Origin: Chloroflexota bacterium
GTDB lineage: Bacteria; Chloroflexota; Dormibacteria; CF-121
Length of the DNA: 64,000 nt
Assembly: GCA_005882775.1 (NCBI GenBank)
Contig: VBDY01000122.1
Span: 9,317 to 73,316, forward strand
Reading direction: 5' to 3'
Shown here: piece after piece, positions 26,275-54,908 of the stretch
How the letters are laid out: every line of letters begins with the position of its first letter
How positions within the stretch are numbered: position 1 is the stretch's first letter
Notes under the pieces: model-generated
Databases searched by the model: none
What the model saw: only the letters and a program-made list of their open reading frames with translations
Told to the model about the DNA's origin: nothing
Made by a program: the position numbers and the translations under genes

Positions 26275-29200
26275 GTTTAGCGTGGCGGCCATGGGCAACG
26301 TCATACCGTGGTCGCAGATTCACCCCACCGTCAAGAGCGAGGCGCCCTTCGTCAGCGTCCTGATCATCGACCCCACCCGCCAGCTGTGCGTCAGCGAGCA
26401 GATCCCGCTGGACCAGGAGGTCCTGGTTCATCCTGATGTCGCTGCCTCCGAGACCATCGCGGCGGCGCAGCAGGCTGCCGCCCGGGTGGCCAGCATGTAC
26501 CGTCAGCGTCTCAAGCAGGCGCCGACAGGGCCGGCATCCCCGGGCAGGCCTCGAATGGCGACGCCAGATCAGACACCGCCCCGATTCCGTGTGCTCAAGG
26601 GCGGATTGCGCCCGGCGCGCTAGCCCTAAGCGTTCGAGACCTGGTGCTCCTCTTCCAGAGAGTGCTCCGGGGCTGAGCCGTCCTCCGGTCCCCTTCTCCG
26701 CACGCTCCGCGAGTGAATCGTCCTTGGAGAAGAGGACGATCTGATGGTCCTGGCCGAGCCGGCCCAGCTCATCGAGCGCAGCCCGCATCCGGCGCCGGTC
26801 GGCATGCACCAGGGCCTCGTCGAGGAGCAGGGGAGGGGGTTCGGCGTTGCCTCCGATGATGCGGGCCAGTGCCACCCGCTCCAGCAGGTAGATCAGCGAG
26901 CGCGTTCCCAGGCTGAGGTTGTCCACGTCTCGGAAACCGCGCTGCTCCTGGGACTTTACCTGCAGAGTCAGGTCGTCCCCGACCTGGACGTCGCGATAGC
27001 GCCCGTTCGTGATCGGCGACAGCTGTCCCTGTAGTTGCGACTTGAGGCGGGGGATAACCGCGCGACGGACGGACCGGGCAGCCGCTTCCAGGGTTTCGAT
27101 GGCGAGGTCGTACGCGTGCGCCTCGACCTCCAGATGTTGGAGCTGTTCCCTGACGGCGCTGATCTCTTCTTCCAGGGAGGCGACGTCCCCGATCTGCATG
27201 AGCCGGTCGTTGAGCAGACCCTCGGCCCGAGCCCGCTCCTCCTGGGCCCGCTCCTTGGCCGCCCGGTGCTGGTCTCGCTGACGCTCCAATTCCGCCAGCG
27301 GCAGGGCGCGGTACTCGGCGACCCGCTGCGGGTCGAGGCCACGCATGGTTTCGGCGAGCTGCGATTCGAGGTCGGCCACCAGCTTGGCGAGTGAGGCGCT
27401 CTCCTGTTCCCCGGCGACCGTCTTCAGCTGATCGTCCAGGTCGCTCAGCCGGGCGGTCGAGCCGCGGTGCGCCTGGGCCCGGTCGACCGCCGCATCCCAC
27501 GCCTGTGCCGCCGCTTCTGGGTCCGTGGCATTGATACCGGCCGGTCCGTAGATGGCGGACAGCTGGCGGGTGTAATCCTCAGCCTTTGTCTGCTCGGCCT
27601 GGGCGCGCTCGGCCGGCTGCCGGAGCTGTTCGAGCTGGGCGTCGAGCTGCTCGATCCGGGTGCGCACCTGCTGGGCGGCACGGGCTGCTTCACAGGAGAT
27701 GATGAAGTCGCGACCGGCCGCGAGCGCCTCTCGCCGGTCGAAGCCTAAGCGGTCGAGGACGCTGTGCAGTCGCTGCCGAAGCTGCTCGCGCTTCTCGTCC
27801 AGAGCCGCCTCCGCGCGCGAAGCGTCCTGGGCCCTCTGGCTGGCTGCCGCCCAGGCGAGCCCGTCCTGGGCGAGCACATCGATCAGTTTGGCCGTCTGTT
27901 CCACGGACTCGTCCGTCGGGGCCGGCTGCGAAAGGCCCCACGACCCGACCATCTCCCGCAACGCCCGGCCGGCTGTCTGGGCCTTCTCCTCGAGCTCGGT
28001 CGCCTGCCGGTCCAGCTCCAGCCTGGTGGCGTCGTAGCGGACCTTCTGCAGGTGCTCCACCAGCGCTTGCTGGAGCTCCCCGGATGACCGAACGCCCCAG
28101 GCCGAGAGAATCTCACGGCGCTTGGTCCGGGCTTCGTCTTTGGCCCGGAGCCGCCGGTCCACCTCGCGGTGAGCGGCCGCCCGGACCCAGATTCCGATAC
28201 CGGTCGCCAGCACCCCCATGCCCAGGAGGAAGAAGGCGGTGCCGACCAGGGCCAGCGGCATGCCGCCCGAGAGTGCCAGGAACGCGATCAGGATGGCCAG
28301 CGCCGTGAGTAGCAGCCCGCCGAGCCAGGCGCCCAGGAAAATGTTCTGTCGCGCCCGGGCCCGCTCCGCCATCGCTTCCTCCCGTCGCATCGCCTCTTCC
28401 GCCTGCTGGCCGGCCTTGATCACGTCCGGCACTTCCTTGTAGCGGGCGATGTCGTGCTTGAGCTGCTCCAGCCGCGGCGGCAGCTCGGCTCCGGCTCGGG
28501 TACGTGCCTCGAGGGCGACGATGTGCCGCTCGCGCCACTCCGCATAGTGCCGCTGAAACTCGATCTGCCGGGCGGTCCAGTCCAGGTTTTGCCCGATCAT
28601 GCCGGGATGCCGCTCAGCGATCCGTCGCACCTCCTCGCCGGCGGCGTGCGCGCGCAGATGCACGTCTGGCGCCTGGGTGTCGGCGTAGGTCAGGGACGAG
28701 ACCAGCTCACGAACGAGCGGCTCTTCTTTCAGGGCCAGCTCATCGACGCCGCGGGCCCGGTTTTCCTGGCCCTGCGCTTCCGAGTCCAGCCGGGCGCGCT
28801 CGGCCTCGAGGTCCTTGACCTGGTCGGCAACCTCGGCAGCGCGCTTTAAGAAATCGTTCTGGGCTTCGCGAGCCGCGCGGAGGTGGCTGCGAAGCTCGAG
28901 CACTTTTGGATGGCGCTCCACCGCGAGCGAGGCAAATGTGGCGTGGTCCTGCTGGCGCTGGGTTTCCTCGCGAATTGCGCCCTGCAGCTGTGCCACATGG
29001 TCGAGCCGGCGGCGCGCCTCCTCCAGGCGCGAGCCGAGCACGGCGGCTTCCAGCATCTGCACGATCGACAGCTCAGCCTCGGTCAGGGCGGCCACCGCCT
29101 CCCGTTTCTGAGCGAGCTCATCCACGGCGGAGCGGGCTTTGCGGGCGGCCGTGATCTGGCGCTCCAGGTCGTTCAGGCGGGCTTCGAGATCGTGCAGTGG

Positions 29201-29794
29201 TCCACTCCTGGCCCGCGGCCGCCCGATTCTGTGGACCCGCTCCTGCCGGAGCCGGTCGAGCACCTTGGAGGCGGTGCGGTCGGGATGGGCCGAGTCCGCC
29301 AGGGCGGTGATCGCCTCCTTGATGCTGCCCGCGTCCTCGAGCCGCATCACCTCGCTGCGCGAGATGCAGGCGGTGTTGCCGTAGATCTCCCGCGTGACGC
29401 CGAGCAATTGCCGCCCCACCTGGAGACTTCCCCAGGGGTCGCGCTCGAACCGCTCGGTGATATCGTCACCGGCCGAGAGGTCGGTGACACGGACCGTCTC
29501 GGCATCGAGGTCTCGATCGATTCGCAGACGGGTCCCGTCGTCGAGCTCGACCTCGAGTCCGAGGCCAAAACCGCCACCCTGCCAGGGCCGCCACCGGTCG
29601 CTGTTCTCAACCGCTGCCGCCCGGCTTCGCTGGCGGTCGGACGCTAACCCGTAGAGCCCGGTGAGGATCGCCTCCTGGAGGGTGGATTTCCCCGCCTCGT
29701 TGGGTCCGACGACCAGGTTCATGGACTTTCCGAACCTGAGGTCTGTGCCCCGAAGGCTGCCAAAGCCGTCGATCTGGATCCGGGTGAGCCTCAT
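26264..29794 (-). CDS. SbcC/YhaN-like SMC-fold ATPase with two TM helices in place of a zinc hook
   Basis: Walker A GPNEAGKST at the N-terminus, long coiled-coils, a central hydrophobic hairpin (NIFLGAWLGGLLLTALAILIAFLALSGG...LVGTAFFLLGMGVLATGIGIWV), a C-terminal Walker B LLLDEAL and an H-loop-like HQIVLFSK. The ATG overlaps the upstream stop (ATGA). The ORF continues ~150 aa of low-complexity sequence past the expected end. Confidence 0.8.
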   Translation of the reverse strand: MRLTRIQIDGFGSLRGTDLRFGKSMNLVVGPNEAGKSTLQEAILTGLYGLASDRQRSRAAAVENSDRWRPWQGGGFGLGLEVELDDGTRLRIDRDLDAETVRVTDLSAGDDITERFERDPWGSLQVGRQLLGVTREIYGNTACISRSEVMRLEDAGSIKEAITALADSAHPDRTASKVLDRLRQERVHRIGRPRARSGPLHDLEARLNDLERQITAARKARSAVDELAQKREAVAALTEAELSIVQMLEAAVLGSRLEEARRRLDHVAQLQGAIREETQRQQDHATFASLAVERHPKVLELRSHLRAAREAQNDFLKRAAEVADQVKDLEAERARLDSEAQGQENRARGVDELALKEEPLVRELVSSLTYADTQAPDVHLRAHAAGEEVRRIAERHPGMIGQNLDWTARQIEFQRHYAEWRERHIVALEARTRAGAELPPRLEQLKHDIARYKEVPDVIKAGQQAEEAMRREEAMAERARARQNIFLGAWLGGLLLTALAILIAFLALSGGMPLALVGTAFFLLGMGVLATGIGIWVRAAAHREVDRRLRAKDEARTKRREILSAWGVRSSGELQQALVEHLQKVRYDATRLELDRQATELEEKAQTAGRALREMVGSWGLSQPAPTDESVEQTAKLIDVLAQDGLAWAAASQRAQDASRAEAALDEKREQLRQRLHSVLDRLGFDRREALAAGRDFIISCEAARAAQQVRTRIEQLDAQLEQLRQPAERAQAEQTKAEDYTRQLSAIYGPAGINATDPEAAAQAWDAAVDRAQAHRGSTARLSDLDDQLKTVAGEQESASLAKLVADLESQLAETMRGLDPQRVAEYRALPLAELERQRDQHRAAKERAQEERARAEGLLNDRLMQIGDVASLEEEISAVREQLQHLEVEAHAYDLAIETLEAAARSVRRAVIPRLKSQLQGQLSPITNGRYRDVQVGDDLTLQVKSQEQRGFRDVDNLSLGTRSLIYLLERVALARIIGGNAEPPPLLLDEALVHADRRRMRAALDELGRLGQDHQIVLFSKDDSLAERAEKGTGGRLSPGALSGRGAPGLERLGLARRAQSALEHTESGRCLIWRRHSRPARGCRPCRRLLETLTVHAGHPGGSLLRRRDGLGGSDIRMNQDLLVQRDLLADAQLAGGVDDQDADEGRLALDGGVNLRPRYDVAHGRHAKRRL
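26291..26623 (+). CDS. Hypothetical protein (conflicts with the 3' extension of the YhaN-like ORF on the opposite strand)
   Basis: Diverse, protein-like composition, preceded by the palindromic motif. The overlapping minus-strand tail is low-complexity. Which of the two is real is unresolved. Confidence 0.25.
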   Translation: MGNVIPWSQIHPTVKSEAPFVSVLIIDPTRQLCVSEQIPLDQEVLVHPDVAASETIAAAQQAAARVASMYRQRLKQAPTGPASPGRPRMATPDQTPPRFRVLKGGLRPAR

Positions 29795-30885
29795 GTGTCG
29801 AAGGCGTCCAGTGCCAGCTGAAGGGCGCGGTCGACGGTCTCGTGGGTTTCGCCTTTTGCGCTGCGCTGGTCGACCAGCTTGCGGACGAGCTCGCCACGGC
29901 TGGTGAATTCCTGGGCCATCGCGTCCACGTCGTGAGCGATCCGGGACTGGTCCCGGAACTCGAGATGGGCGAAGCCGTCTCCGCACTCGAGCGTGAGCGC
30001 CTGGGGGTCCATCTCCAGTGACCTGGAGCGCTCGCCGGTGAGGACGGCTCGGATGACCGCGCCCTGTAGACCCCTACTCTCCCTCAATGCCTGGAGGGCC
30101 TGGCGCACGTGTTCGGGGCTGGTCATGCCGGTGATATCGATCGTCTCCTCGATGAAGCGTCGCTGGTTGATGTCCTCCAGGTTCACCACCACCGACCCGT
30201 CGTCGCCCACCGTCACCAGGGCAACGCAGTGTCTGCCAGCTTCGTCCCACCCCAGCGGCTCGGGGCTTCCCGGATAGGTGATCCACCTGTCGGTCTGGGC
30301 GGCGTGGTAGTGGCCCAGCAGGGCGTGCTGAAAACCGTTCTCCTTCACCTGGGTCGGAGTGATGGGCGCGAAGGGCGTCGTGCCCTCGGGCAGCTGGCTG
30401 ATGTCAGAAGCGTGGAGCAACAGAAGGTTGTGCCCACCTTCCACCGGGGTCGCGTCCCGAAGCGGCGCTTCGGCCACGTCGGGCCGGGTGAAACCGGCCG
30501 CCCAGACGGTGACGTCGTGAAAGGGATAGGCGCGCAACTCCTCGTGCGCCGCGATCGTCACGTTCTCCGGCCAGCGCAGGTAGCGGTAGGGCGAGCTGGG
30601 GACCGCCGGGTCCCGGTTGCCGGGCGCGATCAGGACCGGCCGCCCGGCATCGCCCAGGGTCTCGACCACGAAGGCCGCCGTCTCGCGCGTGATGTGGTCG
30701 TGTTCAAAAAGGTCGCCACCGCAGGTGATCAGGTCGCTGTCCTCCTGGCGCGCTCGGTCGACTATGCGGCTCAGCGCTGCCCGTAGGTCCTCGCGCCGGC
30801 GCTGTCCTGCCGCCCCTAAGAGCCGCTGTCCGGCAAACGACCGATCGAGATGCAGGTCAGCAAAATGCAGCAGGCGAAGGGCCAC
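29791..30885 (-). CDS. SbcD/YhaO-like Mre11-family nuclease (calcineurin-like phosphoesterase)
   Basis: GTG start (VALRLLHFADLHLD), GDLFEH, and the GNRD and GHYH metallophosphatase motifs. Confidence 0.8.
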   Translation of the reverse strand: MALRLLHFADLHLDRSFAGQRLLGAAGQRRREDLRAALSRIVDRARQEDSDLITCGGDLFEHDHITRETAAFVVETLGDAGRPVLIAPGNRDPAVPSSPYRYLRWPENVTIAAHEELRAYPFHDVTVWAAGFTRPDVAEAPLRDATPVEGGHNLLLLHASDISQLPEGTTPFAPITPTQVKENGFQHALLGHYHAAQTDRWITYPGSPEPLGWDEAGRHCVALVTVGDDGSVVVNLEDINQRRFIEETIDITGMTSPEHVRQALQALRESRGLQGAVIRAVLTGERSRSLEMDPQALTLECGDGFAHLEFRDQSRIAHDVDAMAQEFTSRGELVRKLVDQRSAKGETHETVDRALQLALDAFDT

Positions 30886-30998
30886 AAAACCCCCGTAGGA
30901 ATTCGATTTCTGCCCGACGAAGACGCGGTCGGACGGCGAAGCAGCGCCAATTATAGAGGTTGTGCGGCAGCACCAAGACAACTTGGTAACTTGACCGC

Positions 30999-31994
30999 AT
31001 GGGCTCGTTCGAGAAGGGCGATCGGGGCGCCCGCATCTTGAAGCTGCAAACACTGCTCCAGGGCAACCCCCGAGGGCTCTTTCCCAGGGAGATCGCCCGC
31101 CGGACCGGGGTAACCACTCGCACCACATATCGCGACATCGCCGCGCTCGAGTCCATGAATGTCCCGATCTACGAGGACGAGGGGCGAATCATCATCGACC
31201 CGAACTACTTCGTCGCGCCGGTCAAATTCACGCTGCGTGAGGCGATGGCGCTGCTGATCGGGGTTCGGCTGATGCATCGTCATTCGGACGAGGCGGATCC
31301 GGACATCGCGGATGCGTTTACCAAGCTGGCCGCGGTTCTGCCGGCGCCGGTGGCCGAGTACGTACACGCGACCGTGCGCCAGATGGCCGAGCGTCCGTCC
31401 AACCCGGGCTTTTCCCGGGTATTCCAGGCCATCGCCCTGGGCTGGGCCGGACGCAAGGTGGTACGCATCTGGTATCCGTCGGCATCCGGCGACCTCAAGC
31501 CGCGCCTGATCGAACCGTATTTCGTCGAACCATCGCTAATCGGTCACAGCAGCTACGTGGTGGCTCGCGATCGCGACCTCCAGGAAATGCGCACCTTCAA
31601 GCTGGAACGGATTGACCGCGCCGAGTCGACGCACCAGACCTACGACATCCCCCGCGAGTTCGACATCAATGCTTATTTGTCAAAAGCCTGGGGCATCTTT
31701 CACTCAGGCGAACCGGTTGAGGTGCGCCTCCGGTTTTATCCGCCGGCCGCCGCCCGTGTGCGCGAGACGATCTGGCATCCGTCACAGCAGCTCAGCCCCG
31801 GTCCTGAGGGCGCGGTCGACATGAGCGTGACCGTCGCCGGCACGGTTGAGATCACACCCTGGATCCTGGGATGGGGAGATGCTGTCGAGGTCCTGGCGCC
31901 GGTCGATCTGCGCGGGCGGATTGCAGAGACAGCGTCGAGACTGGCGGATCGCAACGGCGCCGTTGTGGCGCGCCGGGCTACGGTCGGCGGTTAG
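30999..31994 (+). CDS. HTH-WYL-WCX transcriptional regulator (PafBC-like)
   Basis: N-terminal HTH (TGVTTRTTYRDIAALE) and a WYL domain (VRIWYPSASGDLKPRLIEPYFV). It is divergent from the sbcD/sbcC-like pair, separated by 113 nt. Confidence 0.8.
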   Translation: MGSFEKGDRGARILKLQTLLQGNPRGLFPREIARRTGVTTRTTYRDIAALESMNVPIYEDEGRIIIDPNYFVAPVKFTLREAMALLIGVRLMHRHSDEADPDIADAFTKLAAVLPAPVAEYVHATVRQMAERPSNPGFSRVFQAIALGWAGRKVVRIWYPSASGDLKPRLIEPYFVEPSLIGHSSYVVARDRDLQEMRTFKLERIDRAESTHQTYDIPREFDINAYLSKAWGIFHSGEPVEVRLRFYPPAAARVRETIWHPSQQLSPGPEGAVDMSVTVAGTVEITPWILGWGDAVEVLAPVDLRGRIAETASRLADRNGAVVARRATVGG

Positions 31995-40300: not shown

Positions 40301-41233
40301 TCAGCTACCGAGCAGGGGCTCGATGACCGGCGCCATCGCCTCCATGTTTTTCTCGAACACCGTGACGTAGGAAATCCGCAGCCGGTCCCTGATCCGGCGC
40401 AACTTCTGCCGGATCTGGTCCCCGGTGCCGATCAGCAAGAGGGGAGACTCGAGGATCTCGTCGACGCCCAGCTTCCAATCGCCTATCAGCTTTGCGGCCG
40501 CGCCGGCTGCGTCATCTGTGACGATCACCTCCTGGACCAGGGTATTGAACTCGAGCTCTTCAAAGCGGGAGCCGGCCGCATCGCGTATCACCTCGAGCTT
40601 GTGATCGAATGCCGCCGCGGTCGCGTCCCCATCCTCGAGTGCCGACCCGTCTCGTTTTGAGCGGGGCATGATGCTGATGATGTCGGCCTGTGCGGCGGCG
40701 ATGGTCAGCAAGCGGGTGCCGCCTCCGCCGATCAGGATCGGTGGGTGCGGTTGCTGGATCGGCTTGCAGGTCCCCTCCAGTCCGCTGACGGTGTAATGCT
40801 TTCCGTTCAAGGTCACCGCTTGGTCACCGAAGAGGCCCTTGATGATTGTGAGCGCCTCCGCCATCCGGTCGACCCGAGCGCCGCCATCGACGAATGGGAT
40901 CCCTGTTTTGTCGTACTCCTCGCGCATCCATCCGGCGCCGATCCCGAACTCGAACCGGCCCGCGGTCAGGACGTCGACGGTGGCCGCCTCCTGGGCAAGG
41001 ACGGCGGGATGCCGGAAGTCGTTGTCGAAGACGAAGCTGCCCACCCGCAGCCTGGTGGTGACCTCGGCGGCCAGCACCAGCGCCGGCCCGACCGACATCC
41101 GGGTGCCGATCAGATGGTCGGGCATGACCAGGCTGGAAAAGCCGAGTGCCTCGGCCCGACGAGCCTTGGTCACCCACTCCGCCTTCGACCCCGCGCCTCT
41201 CATCGAGACACCGAAGCGGAACGGTTTGCTCAC
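40301..41233 (-). CDS. LLM-class (luciferase-like) F420-dependent oxidoreductase
   Basis: LLM fold (GFSSLVMPDHLIG...GRFEFGIGAGW). The GTG start overlaps the ogt stop (GTGA). Confidence 0.8.
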   Translation of the reverse strand: MSKPFRFGVSMRGAGSKAEWVTKARRAEALGFSSLVMPDHLIGTRMSVGPALVLAAEVTTRLRVGSFVFDNDFRHPAVLAQEAATVDVLTAGRFEFGIGAGWMREEYDKTGIPFVDGGARVDRMAEALTIIKGLFGDQAVTLNGKHYTVSGLEGTCKPIQQPHPPILIGGGGTRLLTIAAAQADIISIMPRSKRDGSALEDGDATAAAFDHKLEVIRDAAGSRFEELEFNTLVQEVIVTDDAAGAAAKLIGDWKLGVDEILESPLLLIGTGDQIRQKLRRIRDRLRISYVTVFEKNMEAMAPVIEPLLGS

Positions 41234-41865
41234 GCAATCACGAATCCAGCCCGTTGCACCCGCACATCGATTCCCTCCCAGCGAAGGATCCGAGCCTTGA
41301 CCTCGCTGCCGCCACCCGAGTACTCGCCGAGCACCCGGTCGGTGCGGACGACCCGGTGGCATGGGATCAGGATGGGGACCGGGTTGCGTGCCAGGGCGGT
41401 GCCCACTGCGCGTGCCGCGGCGGGCGCGCCGATCTGGACGGCCACCGCGCTGTAAGACCTGACCTGGCCGCGCGGGATGGCGCGGGTGGCATCCAGCACG
41501 CGCCGCTGGAATTTGCCCAGGCGCCCGGTGTCAACCGGATAGTCGAAGCGCGACCCTCCCTCGACCAGCGCGTGAATCGCGGTCCGAAGAGCGACCGGCG
41601 CGTCGGCCCGGCTGGGCTGATAGCCCATGTCCAGGATCCGACCCTCGAAGTTGATGCCGTGTCCACCAACCTGAGACAGGAGGACCGCGTCATCGAAGGC
41701 CACGAAAAGGGTGCCCACCGGCAGGAGAAACTCCGCGTAGCGGAGCCGGCCACCGGCCGGCTTGAACGGCCGCTCCAGGGCCCGGCCGACGAAATCCGCT
41801 TTCACCGATGGCGCCTCAAGCGCTCCGATCAACGCGTGCAGGACGTCTGTATCGCTACCGCTCAC
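41230..41865 (-). CDS. ogt: Methylated-DNA-protein-cysteine methyltransferase
   Basis: PCHRVV active-site motif. The GTG start overlaps the sigma-factor stop (GTGA), with a GGAGGGAGG SD inside the upstream gene. Confidence 0.8.
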   Translation of the reverse strand: MSGSDTDVLHALIGALEAPSVKADFVGRALERPFKPAGGRLRYAEFLLPVGTLFVAFDDAVLLSQVGGHGINFEGRILDMGYQPSRADAPVALRTAIHALVEGGSRFDYPVDTGRLGKFQRRVLDATRAIPRGQVRSYSAVAVQIGAPAAARAVGTALARNPVPILIPCHRVVRTDRVLGEYSGGGSEVKARILRWEGIDVRVQRAGFVIA

Positions 41866-42437
41866 TGATAACCTCCCTCCACGATGTCGTCGGGCAATGC
41901 TGCCCGAACGCGGCGCGTGCCGCGATGAATCCATGCCTTGATGGTCCCGCTGGGGCGGTCGAGGATCTGCGCGATCTCCTCCGGTGGGTAACCGGCGTGA
42001 TGGCGGAGCAGGATCGCCGCGCGCCAGTCCCTGGGGAGCTTTCGCAGCTCTGCATCGACCACAGATAGCAGGGCGCGCCGTCCGGCCGTTTCCTCGGCGT
42101 CGGGGCTGTGGCCCGCCTCCAGCGATAGACCGACGGGGACTTCACGCCGCTGCCGGCCCATCCGGCGCAACCGGTTGATCACCGATCGAAAGAGCCACGG
42201 CCGGATGTCCAGCTGCGAAAGCTGATCCGCGGGTTTACGCTGGAGCGTCTGAAACGCCTGGCTCAGGACATCCTGGAGCGCATCCTCACCGGCCGCGTGG
42301 TCCGGGGCGACCCGGACGGCGAAGGCGAGCAGGCCCGAAAGATGTGGGCGGACGAGTGTGCCGAAAGCCTCCCGATCGCCCGAGGCGACCTGCTCTAGCA
42401 GGGTTTCCTCGCCGGCCGCGGTCGCTGTCACCACCAT
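41862..42437 (-). CDS. ECF-type RNA polymerase sigma-70 factor
   Basis: Region 2 (FGTLVRPHLSGLLAFAVRV) and region 4 HTH (GYPPEEIAQILDRPSGTIKAWIHRG). Confidence 0.85.
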   Translation of the reverse strand: MVVTATAAGEETLLEQVASGDREAFGTLVRPHLSGLLAFAVRVAPDHAAGEDALQDVLSQAFQTLQRKPADQLSQLDIRPWLFRSVINRLRRMGRQRREVPVGLSLEAGHSPDAEETAGRRALLSVVDAELRKLPRDWRAAILLRHHAGYPPEEIAQILDRPSGTIKAWIHRGTRRVRAALPDDIVEGGYQ

Positions 42438-42473
42438 GGGATACAGTCGTTGAGGCCCGGTCTGGTTGCGGGG

Positions 42474-43385
42474 CTAGCTGCTGGCGGCCGCCGCGGTCGA
42501 GGCGGGGGCGACGCCCCGCTCATCCCGCACCAACCAGTTGAGCGCGTTCACGTAAGCCTTGACTGCCGCCTCGAGCACATCCACGGACACGGCTTTCCCA
42601 AGCACCACCCGGCTCCCCTGGCTCAGGGTGACAACCGCCTCGCCCAGGGCGTCGCTACCGCGGGTGGCGGCGGCCAGGCTGAAGTCTTCGAGCTCGGGCG
42701 CAAGCCCGGTGATTTCCTGGACGGCGCGAAACGCCGCGTCCAGGGAGCCTGAGCCTGAGGCGCTCGCGCTCCGCAGCTCGCCGTCGATCTCGAGGGAAAC
42801 GGTGGCGGAGCTGGAAACCCCGCTCTCGGCGTGGACCTGGAACTCGATCAGGGCAAACCGCCCGGGTGCCGCCCGGCCAAGCGCCTCGTCGGCAGCCAGC
42901 CGCAGGTCTTCTGGGTAGAGGGCGCGTTTGCGCTCCGCCAGGTTGAGGACCAGGGAGTAGACCGCGCCCAGGTCTCCCTCTGCCAAATCGATCCCCATCG
43001 CCGACAGTTCCTCGGCCAACCGGCGGCGGCCGGCGGGGCTGCCAACCTGCCCGAACTGCGGAGCGTAGCCGATGTCGGCCGGATCGATGAACGCCGGCGC
43101 CAGCGACTTGGGACGGCGTGGCGGGCTGAAGGCGGCCCGCGGAAAGGCGCTGCGTACGTCTTCGATCCATCTCTCCCAGCCGGAGTAGTCCATGGTGGCG
43201 AGCATCGCGACGTAAGCGTCGAACCGCACCAGCAGGGCTGCGGGCTGGTCGTGGTGCTTGACGATCAAGCTGGTTCCGCTCTCCTCGAGCGCCTTGAGGA
43301 TGGGGTCGAGGTTTCGAGCGAGCTCCGAGGCGGGGATGACCTTTAACACGCCAGCCATCGTAGTCCCGTCCATGCGCTCGGTCAA
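42474..43385 (-). CDS. Fusion: Phd/YefM antitoxin-like N-domain plus LeuA allosteric (dimerisation) domain
   Basis: N-terminus VIPASELARNLDPILKALEESGTSLIVKHHDQPAALLV follows the Phd/YefM pattern. The C-terminus SGSGSLDAAFRAVQEITG...VVLGKAVSVDVLEAAVKAYVNALN resembles the LeuA C-terminal regulatory domain. No toxin gene is adjacent. The start may be the internal MAGVLK (43358). Confidence 0.7.
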   Translation of the reverse strand: MTERMDGTTMAGVLKVIPASELARNLDPILKALEESGTSLIVKHHDQPAALLVRFDAYVAMLATMDYSGWERWIEDVRSAFPRAAFSPPRRPKSLAPAFIDPADIGYAPQFGQVGSPAGRRRLAEELSAMGIDLAEGDLGAVYSLVLNLAERKRALYPEDLRLAADEALGRAAPGRFALIEFQVHAESGVSSSATVSLEIDGELRSASASGSGSLDAAFRAVQEITGLAPELEDFSLAAATRGSDALGEAVVTLSQGSRVVLGKAVSVDVLEAAVKAYVNALNWLVRDERGVAPASTAAAASS

Positions 43386-44565
43386 ACCCGAAACGGCAGG
43401 CCGCCCCTATGATCAGATCAGGCAGGTGCCCGCCCGAGCGACGACCGCGATTCTGCTTTCGGTGACGCTTGTCGCAGCCTGCCAACCGTCGTCGAGCTCC
43501 AGCCGCCAGACGCCTACGCCGACGGCGACCGCTGTCATGACCTGTCCGGCACGGGCCGCTTCCCCGGGAGGCCAGGTCATGCTTTCAGGCCTGGCGTCGC
43601 CGGACGACCTGGCCTTCGACGCTGAAGGCCGGCTGCTATTCGGCGACATCAAGAACGGCACCGTCTCGCGACTCAGCAGCACCGGGGTGGTCGAGCAAGT
43701 GGGGACCGGCCTGCAGGTGCCCGAGGGTATCGTGGCGCGACCTGACGGCCGGCTGCTGGTGGCCGAGCAGGGTCGCAACCGGATCGTGCTGCTCGATCCC
43801 TCAAACCAGGCTGTGACCCTCTGGCGGACGTTTGCAAACCGGACCGGCAAGGAGGGGATCGATGGTATCGGCCTGGACCCGCTCAGCGACGAGGTGATCG
43901 TGCCGGACAGCCCGAACGGAATTCTCTGGCGTGTCAGTCCGGACGGGGCGACCGCCCGCCGGATCGGAGCCGGCATGACCCGACCGGTCGGCACGGTCGT
44001 CGACCAGCAGGAGGCGGTGGTGGTCGCCGACGAGGGTGGGAGCGTCTGGAAATTCAGCGCCCCCTTCCAGCAGCGGCGGATTGCCAGGCTGCCCACACCG
44101 GATGACGTGGTGGTCGATCACGGCGGCAACCTGTTTATCAACACCCTGGGCGATGGGTCGATCCACATGATCGATCCGGCCGGCCACCAATCGGTGGTTC
44201 TGCGTGGCTTGCAGAGTCCGCAAGGACTGGCGCTCGACGGAGCCGACAACATTGTCTATACGGATACCGGCGGGTCGATTGGCCGGCTTGCCCGGACCTT
44301 CTTTCTGGACCGGCCCGTGGTCACCAAATCCGGCCAGGGGCTGGTAGTGATCTGTCCCGCGCTGCGGCGGGCTGGCGGATATACCGACCCACTCGAGTTG
44401 AGTGTGGTGCCGTCTACCGGCGTGACTGTGGTCAGCCTGGTTCAACCCAGCGGCGATCAGTCGGGCCAGGTCGAGGTCCGGCGGGCCGCCGGGGCGGCCG
44501 CCTTCGTCGACCTACGATTGCGGGCCGGCTTGCTTGAAATCCGGCAGCGCGTCCCGCTTCCCTGA
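43372..44565 (+). CDS. Beta-propeller lipoprotein (SMP-30/gluconolactonase/NHL-repeat-like)
   Basis: Lipobox LVAAC, and repeated blade motifs (DDLAFDAEGRLLFGD, PEGIVARPDGRLLVAEQGRNRIVLLD, PDDVVVDHGGNLFI, PQGLALDGADNIVYTD). Start position uncertain (43258-43372). Confidence 0.6.
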   Translation: MRSVKPETAGRPYDQIRQVPARATTAILLSVTLVAACQPSSSSSRQTPTPTATAVMTCPARAASPGGQVMLSGLASPDDLAFDAEGRLLFGDIKNGTVSRLSSTGVVEQVGTGLQVPEGIVARPDGRLLVAEQGRNRIVLLDPSNQAVTLWRTFANRTGKEGIDGIGLDPLSDEVIVPDSPNGILWRVSPDGATARRIGAGMTRPVGTVVDQQEAVVVADEGGSVWKFSAPFQQRRIARLPTPDDVVVDHGGNLFINTLGDGSIHMIDPAGHQSVVLRGLQSPQGLALDGADNIVYTDTGGSIGRLARTFFLDRPVVTKSGQGLVVICPALRRAGGYTDPLELSVVPSTGVTVVSLVQPSGDQSGQVEVRRAAGAAAFVDLRLRAGLLEIRQRVPLP

Positions 44566-52152: not shown

Positions 52153-53229
52153 ATGGCCACAGCGACCGCGACCACACGCAGCCGGCTCGAGGAGATCCTC
52201 GGAGCCGATGCCAAGCCTCTTCTCGACCATGAGTGCAAGACGGTCCTCAAATCGCAGCTCCACCTGCCGGGGCCTACGTTCGTGGACCAGGTCTGGACGC
52301 TGAGCGACCGGCCAACCCGCGTCCTTCGCAGCATTCAGTCTCTGTTTGACAACGGCCGGCTCGCCGGAACCGGTTACCTGTCCATACTGCCGGTCGATCA
52401 GGGGATCGAGCATTCCGCCGGCGCATCCTTCGCGGCCAACCCGGAATACTTCGACGGCGAGAAGATCGTCGAGCTCGCCCTGGAGGGGGGTTGCAATGCG
52501 GTGGCATCAACCTTCGGAGTGCTCGGCTCGGTGGCGCGCAAATATGCGCATCGAATCCCATTCATCTGCAAGATAAACCACAACGAGCTCCTCACCTATC
52601 CCAACAAATACGACCAGATCATCTTCGGCACGGTGAAACAGGCCTGGGAGCTGGGCGCCGTCGCCCTGGGCGCCACCATCTACTTCGGCTCGGCCGAGTC
52701 CGACCGCCAGATCCAGGAGATCGCGGTTGCCTTCCAGGCGGCCCACGAGCTGGGCATGGCGACCGTGCTCTGGTGCTACCTGCGCAACTCCGCCTTCGTC
52801 AAGGACGGCGTCGACTACCACCTGGCCGCGGACCTGACCGGCCAGGCCAATCATCTGGGCGTGACCATCGAGGCCGACATCATCAAGCAGAAGCTGCCCG
52901 AGACCAACCGCGGCTTCGAGGCCTTGAAGTTCGGCAAGACCACCTCAAAGGTCTACGACAAGCTGTCCAGCGACAACCCGATCGACCTGACCCGCTACCA
53001 GGTGATCAATTGCTATCTCGGCCGCAGCGGCCTGATCAATTCCGGTGGTGCATCCTCGGGCGAAAGCGACCTGAAAGAGGCGGTCAAGACCGCCGTCATC
53101 AACAAGCGAGCGGGCGGTATGGGCCTGATCACCGGGCGCAAGGCCTTCATGCGGCCCATGCGTGACGGGGTTGCCATCCTGAACGCGGTGCAGGACGTCT
53201 ACCTGATGGACGAGGTCACGGTCGCCTAA
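52153..53229 (+). CDS. fbaB: Class I fructose-bisphosphate aldolase (DhnA/FbaB type)
   Basis: Near-collinear match to my memory of E. coli FbaB, e.g. [86 protein letters not shown] and [10 protein letters not shown]. Confidence 0.85.
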
Positions 53230-53312
53230 ACTTCGCGACACGACCGCTATCACGCAATCCGCACCTGAGGCTGCCTGATCACGTGCCGGAGCCGTGAGAA
53301 TATTCGAAGCCG

Positions 53313-54431
53313 ATGGCTCTGGCGGCTCGCCTCGATGCGTTCCGGCGCCGCTGCGATGAGCTGACCAGCCTGCATGCGGGCTATCCCTACAACCTGGCCT
53401 ACGACTACACGCCTCTGCTGCCCTTCTTCCAGTACACCATCAACAACCTCGGCGATCCCTACGTCAACGGCAACTACGGCATCCATTCGCGCGAGTTCGA
53501 GCGCGAATGCCTGGCCTGGTTTGCCCGGCTCTACGGCCTGGAAGACCACTGGGGTTACGTCACCAGTTGCGGAACCGAAGGCAACCTGTACGGCATCTTC
53601 CTCGGCCGCGAGCGGTATCCGGACGCTGCCCTCTACTTCTCAAGGGATACGCACTACTCGGTCCACAAGGCCGCCCGGCTCCTCCAGATCGCGCCCGTGG
53701 CGATCGATTCGCAGTCGAATGGCGAGATCGACTACGCGGACCTGGAGGCGCAGGTGGCGCGGCGCGGAAGTCGTCCCGCCATCGTGAACGTCAATCTCGG
53801 GACTACTCTGAAAGGCGCGGTCGATCGCATCGACCGGGTGGCGACCATCCTGGACGGGGTCGGCGTGCCCTTTCACCTCCACTGCGACGGGGCGCTCGGC
53901 GGGTTGCTACTTCCCTACATTCAGGGCTCGCCGGCAATCGACTTCACCAATTACCCGATCGGCAGCATCGCGGTCAGCGGCCACAAATTCATCGGATCGC
54001 CGATCCCGTGCGGGATCGTCCTGGCCAGGCGGGCACACGTCAAGCAGATCGAAACCGCGATCGAGTACATCGGCAGCACCGACACCACCATCATGGGCTC
54101 GCGCCAGGGCCTGGCCGCGCTCTTTCTCTGGTACGCGATTACCGATCGCGGTGATCGCTTCGCCGAGGAGGTGGCGACCTGCGTGGGAAATGCCGAGTAC
54201 CTGCGCGATGGGCTCGCCGAGCTGGGCCTGGACCCGCTGCTGAACGCCTGGTCCAACACGGTCGTCTTCCGCAAGCCGTCCGCCGACCTGTGCCGCACAT
54301 GGCAGCTGGCCACCCAGGGCGAGCTCGCTCATGTGGTGGTGATGCAGAACATCGGCAGGACCAAGATCGATTCGCTGCTCGAGGACCTATCCGGAGCCCG
54401 CGACCGCCAGCCCCGGGCCGCAGTCTCCTAG
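53313..54431 (+). CDS. PLP-dependent histidine-decarboxylase-family (group II) decarboxylase
   Basis: WGYVTSCGTEGNLYG, YFSRDTHYSVHKAARLL and the PLP-Lys context SGHKFIGSPIPCGIV match the bacterial Hdc family. The substrate is unknown. Confidence 0.8.
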   Translation: MALAARLDAFRRRCDELTSLHAGYPYNLAYDYTPLLPFFQYTINNLGDPYVNGNYGIHSREFERECLAWFARLYGLEDHWGYVTSCGTEGNLYGIFLGRERYPDAALYFSRDTHYSVHKAARLLQIAPVAIDSQSNGEIDYADLEAQVARRGSRPAIVNVNLGTTLKGAVDRIDRVATILDGVGVPFHLHCDGALGGLLLPYIQGSPAIDFTNYPIGSIAVSGHKFIGSPIPCGIVLARRAHVKQIETAIEYIGSTDTTIMGSRQGLAALFLWYAITDRGDRFAEEVATCVGNAEYLRDGLAELGLDPLLNAWSNTVVFRKPSADLCRTWQLATQGELAHVVVMQNIGRTKIDSLLEDLSGARDRQPRAAVS

Positions 54432-54435
54432 TACT

Positions 54436-54463
54436 GCCTCTTTTGCGCGCGTTACGGCGCGCG
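54436..54463. repeat. 28-nt GC-hairpin motif, copy 2
   Basis: gcctcttttgcgcgcgttacggcgcgcg, 21 nt before the ATG of the small ORF. A TAGAAT -10-like hexamer lies between. Confidence 0.6.
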
Positions 54464-54484
54464 GGGCCGGACTAGAATCGGCGC

Positions 54485-54667
54485 ATGCCGCGCCTTCGCG
54501 CTACCGACTCAGGACAGGTCTACAACATCGACCTCCCCGAGCTGAAGGTGACCCGCGACCAGGACGGGATCTATGTCCTCCATGGCCGTGGCCACTTCCA
54601 GGCCTTCGAGACGCGCGAGGAGGCCTTCGCCCGTAAGAAGGAAATCGACTACGCGACTTTTCGCTGA
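54485..54667 (+). CDS. Small conserved-looking hypothetical protein (60 aa)
   Basis: ATG start, charged composition, no family recognised. Confidence 0.5.
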   Translation: MPRLRATDSGQVYNIDLPELKVTRDQDGIYVLHGRGHFQAFETREEAFARKKEIDYATFR

Positions 54668-54671
54668 GTAG

Positions 54672-54908
54672 CTAGGGGTCGCCCATCCAGTCGGCAGCGT
54701 GGGGGAGGGGATGGTGGCCGTGGGTGGGCTGGAAACGCAGCACACGTTCGATATCTCGCTCTCGGTAAAGGCGCTCGCGGCGGATCCCCTGCCTGTAGCT
54801 CTTGAGGACCCCGCGGCTGACGTAGGCGTAGAGGGTGGCTGGCTTGACGCCGAGCATGGCGCAGGCCTCGGTTGAACTCAGATACGGCTCACCCTGTATT
54901 TGGATCAC
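54672..54908 (-). CDS. Small HTH DNA-binding protein (excisionase/MerR-AlpA-like HTH_17)
   Basis: LSSTEACAMLGVKPATLYAYVSRGVLKSYRQG. Divergent from the HMGL synthase gene. Confidence 0.7.
   Translation of the reverse strand: MIQIQGEPYLSSTEACAMLGVKPATLYAYVSRGVLKSYRQGIRRERLYRERDIERVLRFQPTHGHHPLPHAADWMGDP

Follow-up and report, generated by a model that had tools for sequence, protein, structure and literature searches.

The window analysed here is a stretch of 64,000 nucleotides (nt) from a Chloroflexota bacterium assigned to the Dormibacteria (NCBI GenBank assembly GCA_005882775.1, contig VBDY01000122.1, positions 9,317 to 73,316), and the gene under study lies on its minus strand, as an open reading frame (ORF) of 303 codons (42474..43385). 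This gene encodes a two-module protein, called the fusion in the following, in which an N-terminal domain with the fold of the Phd/YefM antitoxins is joined to the accessory and regulatory parts of LeuA (2-isopropylmalate synthase, IPMS), without the catalytic domain of that enzyme. On the 3' side and on the same strand, the fusion gene is followed by genes coding for a sigma factor of the extracytoplasmic function (ECF) type, an Ogt-like methyltransferase and an F420-dependent LLM-class oxidoreductase, on which a GH3 gene converges. On the 5' side, a divergent group of genes encodes an NHL/SGL lipoprotein, a type II citrate synthase, an HNH protein and a PIG-L protein. The fusion gene is separated by 36 nt from the sigma factor gene and by less than 70 nt from the lipoprotein gene. 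An earlier note on this DNA, made from the sequence alone, had described the same order of genes downstream of the fusion. The positions of the features are given in Table 1.

Table 1. Features of the fusion gene and of the genes downstream of it (window coordinates; residue numbers refer to the 303-codon ORF; aa, amino acids)
Feature	Position	Strand	Details
Sigma-70-type promoter, TTGACC-N17-TACGAT	43357..43385	-	7 nt separate the -10 element from the GTG
Fusion, revised coding sequence	42474..43349	-	291 aa; GTG start, TAG stop
Phd/YefM-fold N-terminal domain	43146..43349	-	residues 13-80; b1-a1-b2-b3-a2-a3
Low-confidence basic linker (AFSPPRRPKSLAPAF)	43089..43145	-	residues 81-99; predicted local distance difference test (pLDDT) <50
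LeuA accessory-domain remnant	42921..43088	-	residues 100-155; end of subdomain I and subdomain II
LeuA allosteric/dimerisation (regulatory) domain	42531..42920	-	residues 156-285; two b-b-b-a units
Candidate ECF-type promoter, GCAACC-N17-CTGTAT (tentative)	42443..42469	-	in the 36-nt fusion-sigma gap
ECF sigma factor	41862..42437	-	191 aa; Sigma70_r2/r4_2 and TIGR02937 matches
Ogt-like methyltransferase	41230..41865	-	211 aa; PF01035/TIGR00589, intact PCHRV; GTG start overlaps the sigma TGA stop
F420-dependent LLM-class oxidoreductase	40301..41233	-	TIGR03621, 330 bits (cutoff 213)

An antitoxin-type head on a LeuA-derived module

The C-terminal module of the fusion is derived from LeuA. Indeed, Pfam places LeuA_dimer (PF08502) on the whole regulatory domain with an E-value of 4.5e-31 (107.9 bits, cutoff 24.9), and residues 100-290 correspond to profile positions 311-506 of the NCBIfam LeuA models. 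The earlier note had recognised a regulatory domain of ~130 aa at this end; the domain itself is borne out by these matches, but the LeuA-like part is longer, ~190 aa (residues 100-290). PF00682 is not matched, the alignment to the LeuA models begins only at profile position 311, and the catalytic DRE-TIM (HMGL-like) TIM barrel is wholly missing, therefore the fusion cannot be a synthase. The full-length predicted model matches Leu-bound LeuA of M. tuberculosis (3FIG, E 2e-9; also 1SR9), as well as the isolated regulatory domain of citramalate synthase (3F6G/3F6H, template modelling score 0.72-0.78). The regulatory-domain motifs GxGxLDAxF, TxGxDAxGEA and AYxNALN are retained; in the forms GxGxLDA, TxGxDAxxEA and AYxNALN they are invariant family-wide, across sublineages that share only 35-38% identity, and they are also conserved in bona fide LeuA. 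Almost all of the residues that are invariant throughout the family lie within the LeuA-derived part, including, in the accessory-domain remnant, G106, P109, G112, G115, G119, R120, Y143 and K153 (G94, P97, G100, G103, G107, R108, Y131 and K141 when counted from the revised GTG start).

The N-terminal domain had been compared with Phd/YefM antitoxins in the earlier note, and this assignment is confirmed by the combination of a sub-threshold profile match, shared by 13 of 14 members, and of the predicted fold. With the full protein, PhdYeFM_antitox (PF02604) is matched by residues 15-66 with an E-value of 8.4e-6 and 25.9 bits, just below the cutoff of 29.8, but 13 of the 14 isolated N-domains of family members match it at E <1 (best 6e-7, 29.1 bits, cutoff 29.8) and no other family is matched consistently among these 14 domains; the distant member P0125 has no PF02604 match. 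By itself, the sequence support for a Phd/YefM identity is borderline. The motif present in the domain is PASELARNLDPILKALEESGTSLIVKHHDQPAALLV, of which the string quoted in the earlier note was an approximation. Sequence searches of the PDB were uninformative (an N-domain profile retrieved no antitoxin and only spurious matches to designed repeat proteins, a full-length phmmer search returned nothing at E <=0.01, and a full-length profile gave only weak matches, to 3F6G, 6E1J and 1SR9), and fold comparison was therefore used: structural comparison of the predicted model showed that the N-terminal domain has the Phd/YefM fold. In the sublineage to which the window protein belongs (sublineage 1), this domain is the most conserved part of the protein (~90% identity), with a nearly invariant A-R-N in helix a1 and a K/R at the b2-b3 hairpin, which are the positions matching the DNA contacts of YefM. 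The PPRRxK of the linker is nearly invariant in the same sublineage and absent in sublineage 2.

The start of the gene had to be revised. In the earlier note, the coding span reached to the TTG at 43385; the position of the GTG at 43349 is kept in all 36 non-redundant upstream sequences of the DNA alignment of relatives, and many database homologues (290-291 aa) begin at V/MLKVI, others carrying an upstream extension. The extended homologues share an apparently conserved 'FD....Y(D/H)G' in this N-terminal extension. Judging from the aligned DNA, what is conserved there is the promoter and not a protein, the extension looking conserved because TTTGAC and TAC(G/C)AT are the -35 and -10 elements; the TTG at 43385, taken earlier as the start of the ORF, is part of the -35 hexamer. 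Gene callers often start the fusion gene too far upstream (43350-43385 on the minus strand of the window, and the equivalent region in ~36 loci). In a scan of positions 41700-43700, this promoter was the sole sigma-70-like site (0.1 expected by chance), and the consensus over 36 loci is GTTTGACC-N16/17-CTAC(G/C)ATGGCGTC-GTG, with 6-7 nt between the -10 element and the invariant GTG. Given the 7-nt distance in the window, a leaderless mRNA is predicted, and it is very likely that the fusion is expressed as a leaderless transcript from a housekeeping-type promoter. No terminator-like site was found between the fusion and the sigma gene in a scan of the window, so read-through from the fusion promoter is possible.

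Distribution and genomic context of the fusion gene

The fusion belongs to a family with two deep sublineages, which spans the Dormibacterota. Its close relatives amount to more than 120 cluster representatives (72-95% identity, ~290-310 aa), all of them from metagenome-assembled genomes (MAGs) or metagenomes and chiefly from Candidatus Dormibacterota. An exhaustive search of 50%-identity representatives yielded this one cluster, a few distant full-length relatives and otherwise only ordinary LeuA C-termini; 'LeuA C-terminus' matches of 260-300 aa were rejected as members of the family, being fragments of full LeuA proteins. By following the distant full-length relatives, a second deep sublineage was reached (241-290 aa, 35-38% identity to the window protein), also made up of Dormibacterota MAGs. 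The gene is single-copy in each locus examined. It was present in 35 of 37 GTDB species-representative loci, which were themselves retrieved by the sequence motif of the fusion, and within sublineage 1 its product is 70-95% identical, on a par with citrate synthase and GH3. At the level of sequence comparison, strong purifying conservation of the fusion across a phylum is shown. Six loci (L018, L029, L044, L047, L049 and L032) are labelled Candidatus Acidoferrum, Binatus, Limnocylindria, Eisenbacteria or Actinomycetes; these have 76-88% identity and full synteny with the Dormibacterota loci, and are probably mis-binned contigs or mislabelled MAGs.

As the earlier note had stated, no toxin gene stands beside the fusion in the window, where there is no space for one, and no toxin domain (Doc, YoeB, RelE/ParE, PIN) was detected in any related locus looked at, those of sublineage 2 included. 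In the species-representative loci, the divergent side with the NHL, citrate synthase, HNH and PIG-L genes is conserved. The downstream neighbours are variable: an LLM gene directly follows the fusion in about half of these loci, and a convergent GH3 or other genes are found in the others. A homologue of the sigma or ogt gene is present in none of the 35 fusion-bearing species loci (within 6 kb; in 12-kb loci, even at E <=0.01). The surroundings differ in sublineage 2, where the order is FakA-Asp23-L28-HDAC | amidohydrolase-FTCD, then the fusion, then the gene of a small PPOX-class protein, patatin and the rib operon, with neither a sigma nor a toxin gene near it. In two of these loci (L060 and L062; 3700-6850), the fusion begins 13-23 nt after an amidohydrolase-FTCD pair resembling histidine-utilisation genes, on the same strand; in view of this spacing, it is probably co-transcribed there with amino-acid catabolic genes.

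A neighbouring gene for a predicted F420-dependent oxidoreductase is the only functional association that crosses both sublineages, and one that was noticed post hoc. In about half of sublineage 1, the next same-strand gene, 0-70 nt after the fusion, codes for an LLM protein; in the window, the GTG start of the LLM gene overlaps the TGA stop of the Ogt gene (GTGA). In three of the four sublineage-2 contexts, the next gene codes for a PPOX-class F420-like protein (L060 6727-7038, L061 6903-7148, L062 6849-7154), whose best NCBIfam matches are all F420-dependent PPOX families, yet under the cutoffs. LLM and PPOX proteins have unrelated folds, and only one of ~56 genes in the window is of a predicted F420-dependent oxidoreductase kind. 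The association suggests that the downstream oxidoreductase gene could be a regulatory target of the fusion.

The sigma-Ogt pair was found directly after the fusion in four lineages only (window/L050, L008, L056/57 and L059; Ogt-side search). In a neighbour-joining tree of the fusion protein, these four form one basal clade beside the outgroup branch, with pairwise identities among them of 69-81% for the fusion, 63-74% for the sigma factor and 52-64% for Ogt. These identities fit an old, clade-specific insert that would have descended vertically together with the fusion; alternatively, the pair could be an ancestral module lost in the crown group. A metagenome scan with the sigma factor returned two close and four distant loci only and was uninformative for synteny. 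In most lineages, the fusion is present and the sigma factor is not, and the core function of the fusion therefore does not depend on the latter; by gene order, the sigma factor is a lineage-specific neighbour and not a universal partner.

By convention, the partner of an ECF sigma factor is looked for in a protein that is encoded downstream, translationally coupled and provided with an extension of its own. In the sigma-bearing loci, the sigma stop and the Ogt start overlap by 1-4 nt (in the window, the overlap is GTGA and is preceded by a GGAGG Shine-Dalgarno sequence), and the sigma-linked Ogt proteins (window, L008, L056, L057 and L059) keep the PCHRV active site and have a conserved ~38-aa N-terminal extension and a short C-terminal tail that are missing from ordinary Ogt; the 211-aa form of the protein is on record. 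Because it is translationally coupled, downstream and equipped with a dedicated extension, the Ogt-like protein is a better and more conventional candidate partner for the sigma factor than the fusion. As a suicide alkyltransferase, it may act as an alkylation-sensing anti-sigma factor; nothing relevant was found in the literature on ECF sigma factors and alkyltransferases. Between the fusion and sigma genes, all four lineages (window, L008, L056/57 and L059) keep a GCAAC(C/G)-N17-CTG motif, which hints, tentatively, at a separate sigma promoter; over the window, the motif shows no enrichment (2 occurrences against 2 expected).

Elsewhere in the window, the region 52153-56278 (plus strand) encodes a DeoC/LacD-family aldolase, a histidine-decarboxylase-like pyridoxal phosphate enzyme (NF002748, 443 bits) and a divergent homocitrate/isopropylmalate-synthase-like protein (54872..56278, 468 aa) lacking the regulatory domain of LeuA. 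It is followed by two tandem large DUF3352 proteins of 683 and 530 aa (56312-60149, plus strand), the first of which has a Pro-rich N-terminal region containing a zinc-ribbon-like CxxC...CxxC motif. Furthermore, an IS110-family transposase lies beside an SbcC-like AAA/SMC protein of 1240 aa, a Metallophos (SbcD-like) protein and a divergent HTH-WYL-WCX regulator (24990-31994).

Proposed function and alternative explanations

The Phd/YefM-LeuA domain architecture appears to be undescribed: no paper pairing LeuA_dimer with an antitoxin was found in the searchable literature, in line with the remark of the earlier note that such a combination would be unusual. It shares features with several known systems. 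(i) With the Phd/YefM type II antitoxins (YefM, Phd, M. tuberculosis RelB/RelJ, the N-domain of VapB46) the N-terminal fold is common, whereas the fusion has no cognate toxin gene, scores just below the PF02604 gathering threshold, carries a folded LeuA module in place of the disordered toxin-binding tail, and is a conserved chromosomal core gene with no palindromic operator found at its own promoter. (ii) With LeuA and CimA it shares the duplicated b-b-b-a fold, the ligand-loop motifs GxGxLDA and TxGxDAxGE and the accessory and PF08502 parts; in LeuA, the pair of regulatory domains dimerises and hosts a Leu or Ile site. Unlike these enzymes, the fusion has no DRE-TIM barrel, and its identity to any LeuA C-terminus is at most ~40%. 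(iii) Lrp/AsnC (RAM domain) and CodY (GAF domain) would illustrate the same proposed principle, an oligomeric DNA binder set by a C-terminal sensor of branched-chain amino acids, but both of their domain types are of unrelated folds, and the fusion is known from sequence and models. (iv) IlvH/IlvN would be analogues if the fusion acts in trans on a catalytic subunit; those proteins have ACT folds and adjoin their catalytic partners, whereas no partner gene is adjacent to the fusion. (v) Ada (Ada_Zn_binding-Ogt) and the Phd/YefM-Ogt fusions likewise combine a small N-terminal DNA-binding head with a sensor or enzyme domain, but their C-terminal domain is a methyltransferase, and the Phd/YefM-Ogt fusions are uncharacterised proteins of other phyla.

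These Phd/YefM-Ogt fusions, in which PF02604 is matched above threshold, occur for example in Armatimonadota MAGs (P0383, P0394, P0402, P0412, P0413, P0415 and P0419), in parallel with Ada_Zn_binding-Ogt fusions. Their existence suggests that the Phd/YefM head is reused as a modular DNA-binding domain outside toxin-antitoxin systems.

The fusion is tentatively, and most economically, interpreted as a dimeric, ligand-responsive DNA-binding regulator, which would be free-standing, probably homodimeric and of the one-component kind, both folds being present in one polypeptide. In brief, a LeuA-type synthase would have exchanged its catalytic TIM barrel for a Phd/YefM-type head, and the paired C-terminal LeuA regulatory domains would bind a small ligand at their interface, by default a branched-chain amino acid (leucine or another) or an acid related to these. 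The accessory subdomain and helix a3 would pass the resulting change to the paired N-domains, which would bind DNA as in YefM and Phd. Expression would come from the housekeeping-type leaderless promoter of the gene itself and the action of the protein would be independent of the ECF sigma factor; the likely targets would include the immediate downstream gene, which often codes for a predicted F420-dependent oxidoreductase. Precedents exist for the separate steps. The Leu site of IPMS is located in its paired regulatory domains, and its accessory domain forms a cap over the active site of the other chain and passes on the allosteric signal (PMC9860122). An isolated PF08502 domain was shown experimentally to be an autonomous ligand-recognition module (PMC13381585). 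The N-domain dimer of YefM reads DNA via Arg10-Gln11 in helix a1 and the b2-b3 wing, and allosteric control of this head is exerted by the C-terminal part, with helix a3 as the link (PMC7544224).

Several observations weigh against this interpretation. On the side of the head, the confidence of the N-domain model is modest (pLDDT 65), the domain is nearly devoid of residues that are invariant over the whole family (A38 being the only one), sublineage 2 does not conserve the basic positions that resemble those of YefM, and the shortest members of that sublineage retain only b1-a1-b2-b3 before the LeuA part, without helices a2-a3. On the side of operator and ligand, the 36 aligned upstream regions have only the -35 element, the -10 element and the start codon in common, with no conserved palindromic operator, and there are no leu/ilv genes near the fusion in the window to anchor the choice of a ligand. 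Lastly, the accessory subdomain is the most conserved non-regulatory part family-wide; in LeuA this subdomain contacts the catalytic barrel, and its conservation is therefore a hint of a protein partner.

A broader and more doubtful version of the DNA-binding interpretation would make the fusion the founder of a Dormibacterota-specific class of metabolite-sensing transcription factors. In such a class, the LeuA allosteric module would have been exapted to gate the Phd/YefM head, would sense a branched-chain amino acid or a related acid, and would control F420 redox genes, together with an ECF sigma/Ogt-like module in the one basal clade, where Ogt is perhaps an alkylation-sensing anti-sigma factor.

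The main alternative, prompted by this hint of a protein partner, is that the fusion is a detached allosteric subunit, docking in trans on a DRE-TIM synthase without a regulatory domain of its own or heterodimerising with LeuA. It would then exert feedback control as IlvH/IlvN do on acetolactate synthase, the Phd-like domain serving merely as a dimerisation scaffold in place of the barrel. The family-wide invariant residues do cluster in the accessory and regulatory parts and not in the N-domain, the relay function of the IPMS accessory domain mentioned above is in keeping with such a role, and the window encodes a possible client, the HMGL-like protein at 54872-56278, which is nifV/LEU1_arch-like and without PF08502. 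This explanation is nevertheless judged unlikely: an HMGL-like gene adjoins the fusion in none of ~60 loci, the one in the window being 12 kb away, and no role is left for a fold of DNA-binding type that is ~90% conserved in sublineage 1. A tblastn search with LeuA catalytic domains against 64 sequences (660 kb) found no canonical leuA.

It had also been proposed, in the earlier note, that the fusion heads a dedicated sigma operon and may be the missing partner of the ECF sigma factor, that is, an anti-sigma factor or co-factor coupling the activity of the sigma factor to a metabolite. The Pfam search agrees with the note in that no classical anti-sigma domain is encoded in the operon, and no terminator was found between the two genes. 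In the four lineages concerned, the sigma-Ogt pair is always the direct same-strand successor of the fusion, at a distance of 36-55 nt, and this arrangement is kept over a divergence as deep as that of sublineage 1, despite an upstream rearrangement in L056. But synteny with the sigma factor does not extend to most relatives: it is missing beside the fusion from every one of the 35 species-representative loci, as from every sublineage-2 locus. The fold of the fusion is not that of an anti-sigma factor either, with no zf-HC2/RsrA-like anti-sigma domain in Pfam (only the weak PF02604 and the PF08502 matches). Moreover, the fusion lies upstream of the sigma gene under its own sigma-70-type promoter, and the sigma factor is translationally coupled to the Ogt-like protein with its dedicated N-terminal extension. 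A role of the fusion as cognate sigma regulator is thus regarded as very improbable.

Least credible of all is a type II antitoxin that is degenerate or orphaned, its toxin being encoded elsewhere, or a decaying, functionless leuA fragment: the N-domain is structurally of the antitoxin fold and relatives are annotated as antitoxins by some pipelines, but a toxin gene is adjacent in no locus, the toxin-neutralising tail has been exchanged for a folded 200-aa module, and the gene belongs to the syntenic core of the phylum, with 70-95% identity, and is neither mobile nor decaying, so that a pseudogene or leuA remnant was rejected on its phylum-wide conservation and intact motifs, with neither frameshifts nor relaxed constraint seen in relatives.

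Meaning for databases and for the Dormibacterota

The analysis corrects annotations in the databases, where the start codon of the gene is mis-called and its products bear the labels 'antitoxin' and '2-isopropylmalate synthase'; what looks like conserved protein sequence ahead of the true start is a promoter. The fusion also offers a natural, compact LeuA-type sensor scaffold, and scaffolds of this type are already being engineered for biosensors (PMC13381585).

If the interpretation of the fusion as a ligand-responsive DNA-binding regulator is true, an allosteric domain would have been detached from its enzyme and turned into the sensory part of an independent regulator, and a head of antitoxin type would be in use outside toxin-antitoxin systems. 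The Dormibacterota are an abundant soil phylum, for which we know of no cultured representative and of essentially no characterised regulator. In this phylum, the fusion would provide a first handle on metabolite-responsive regulation.

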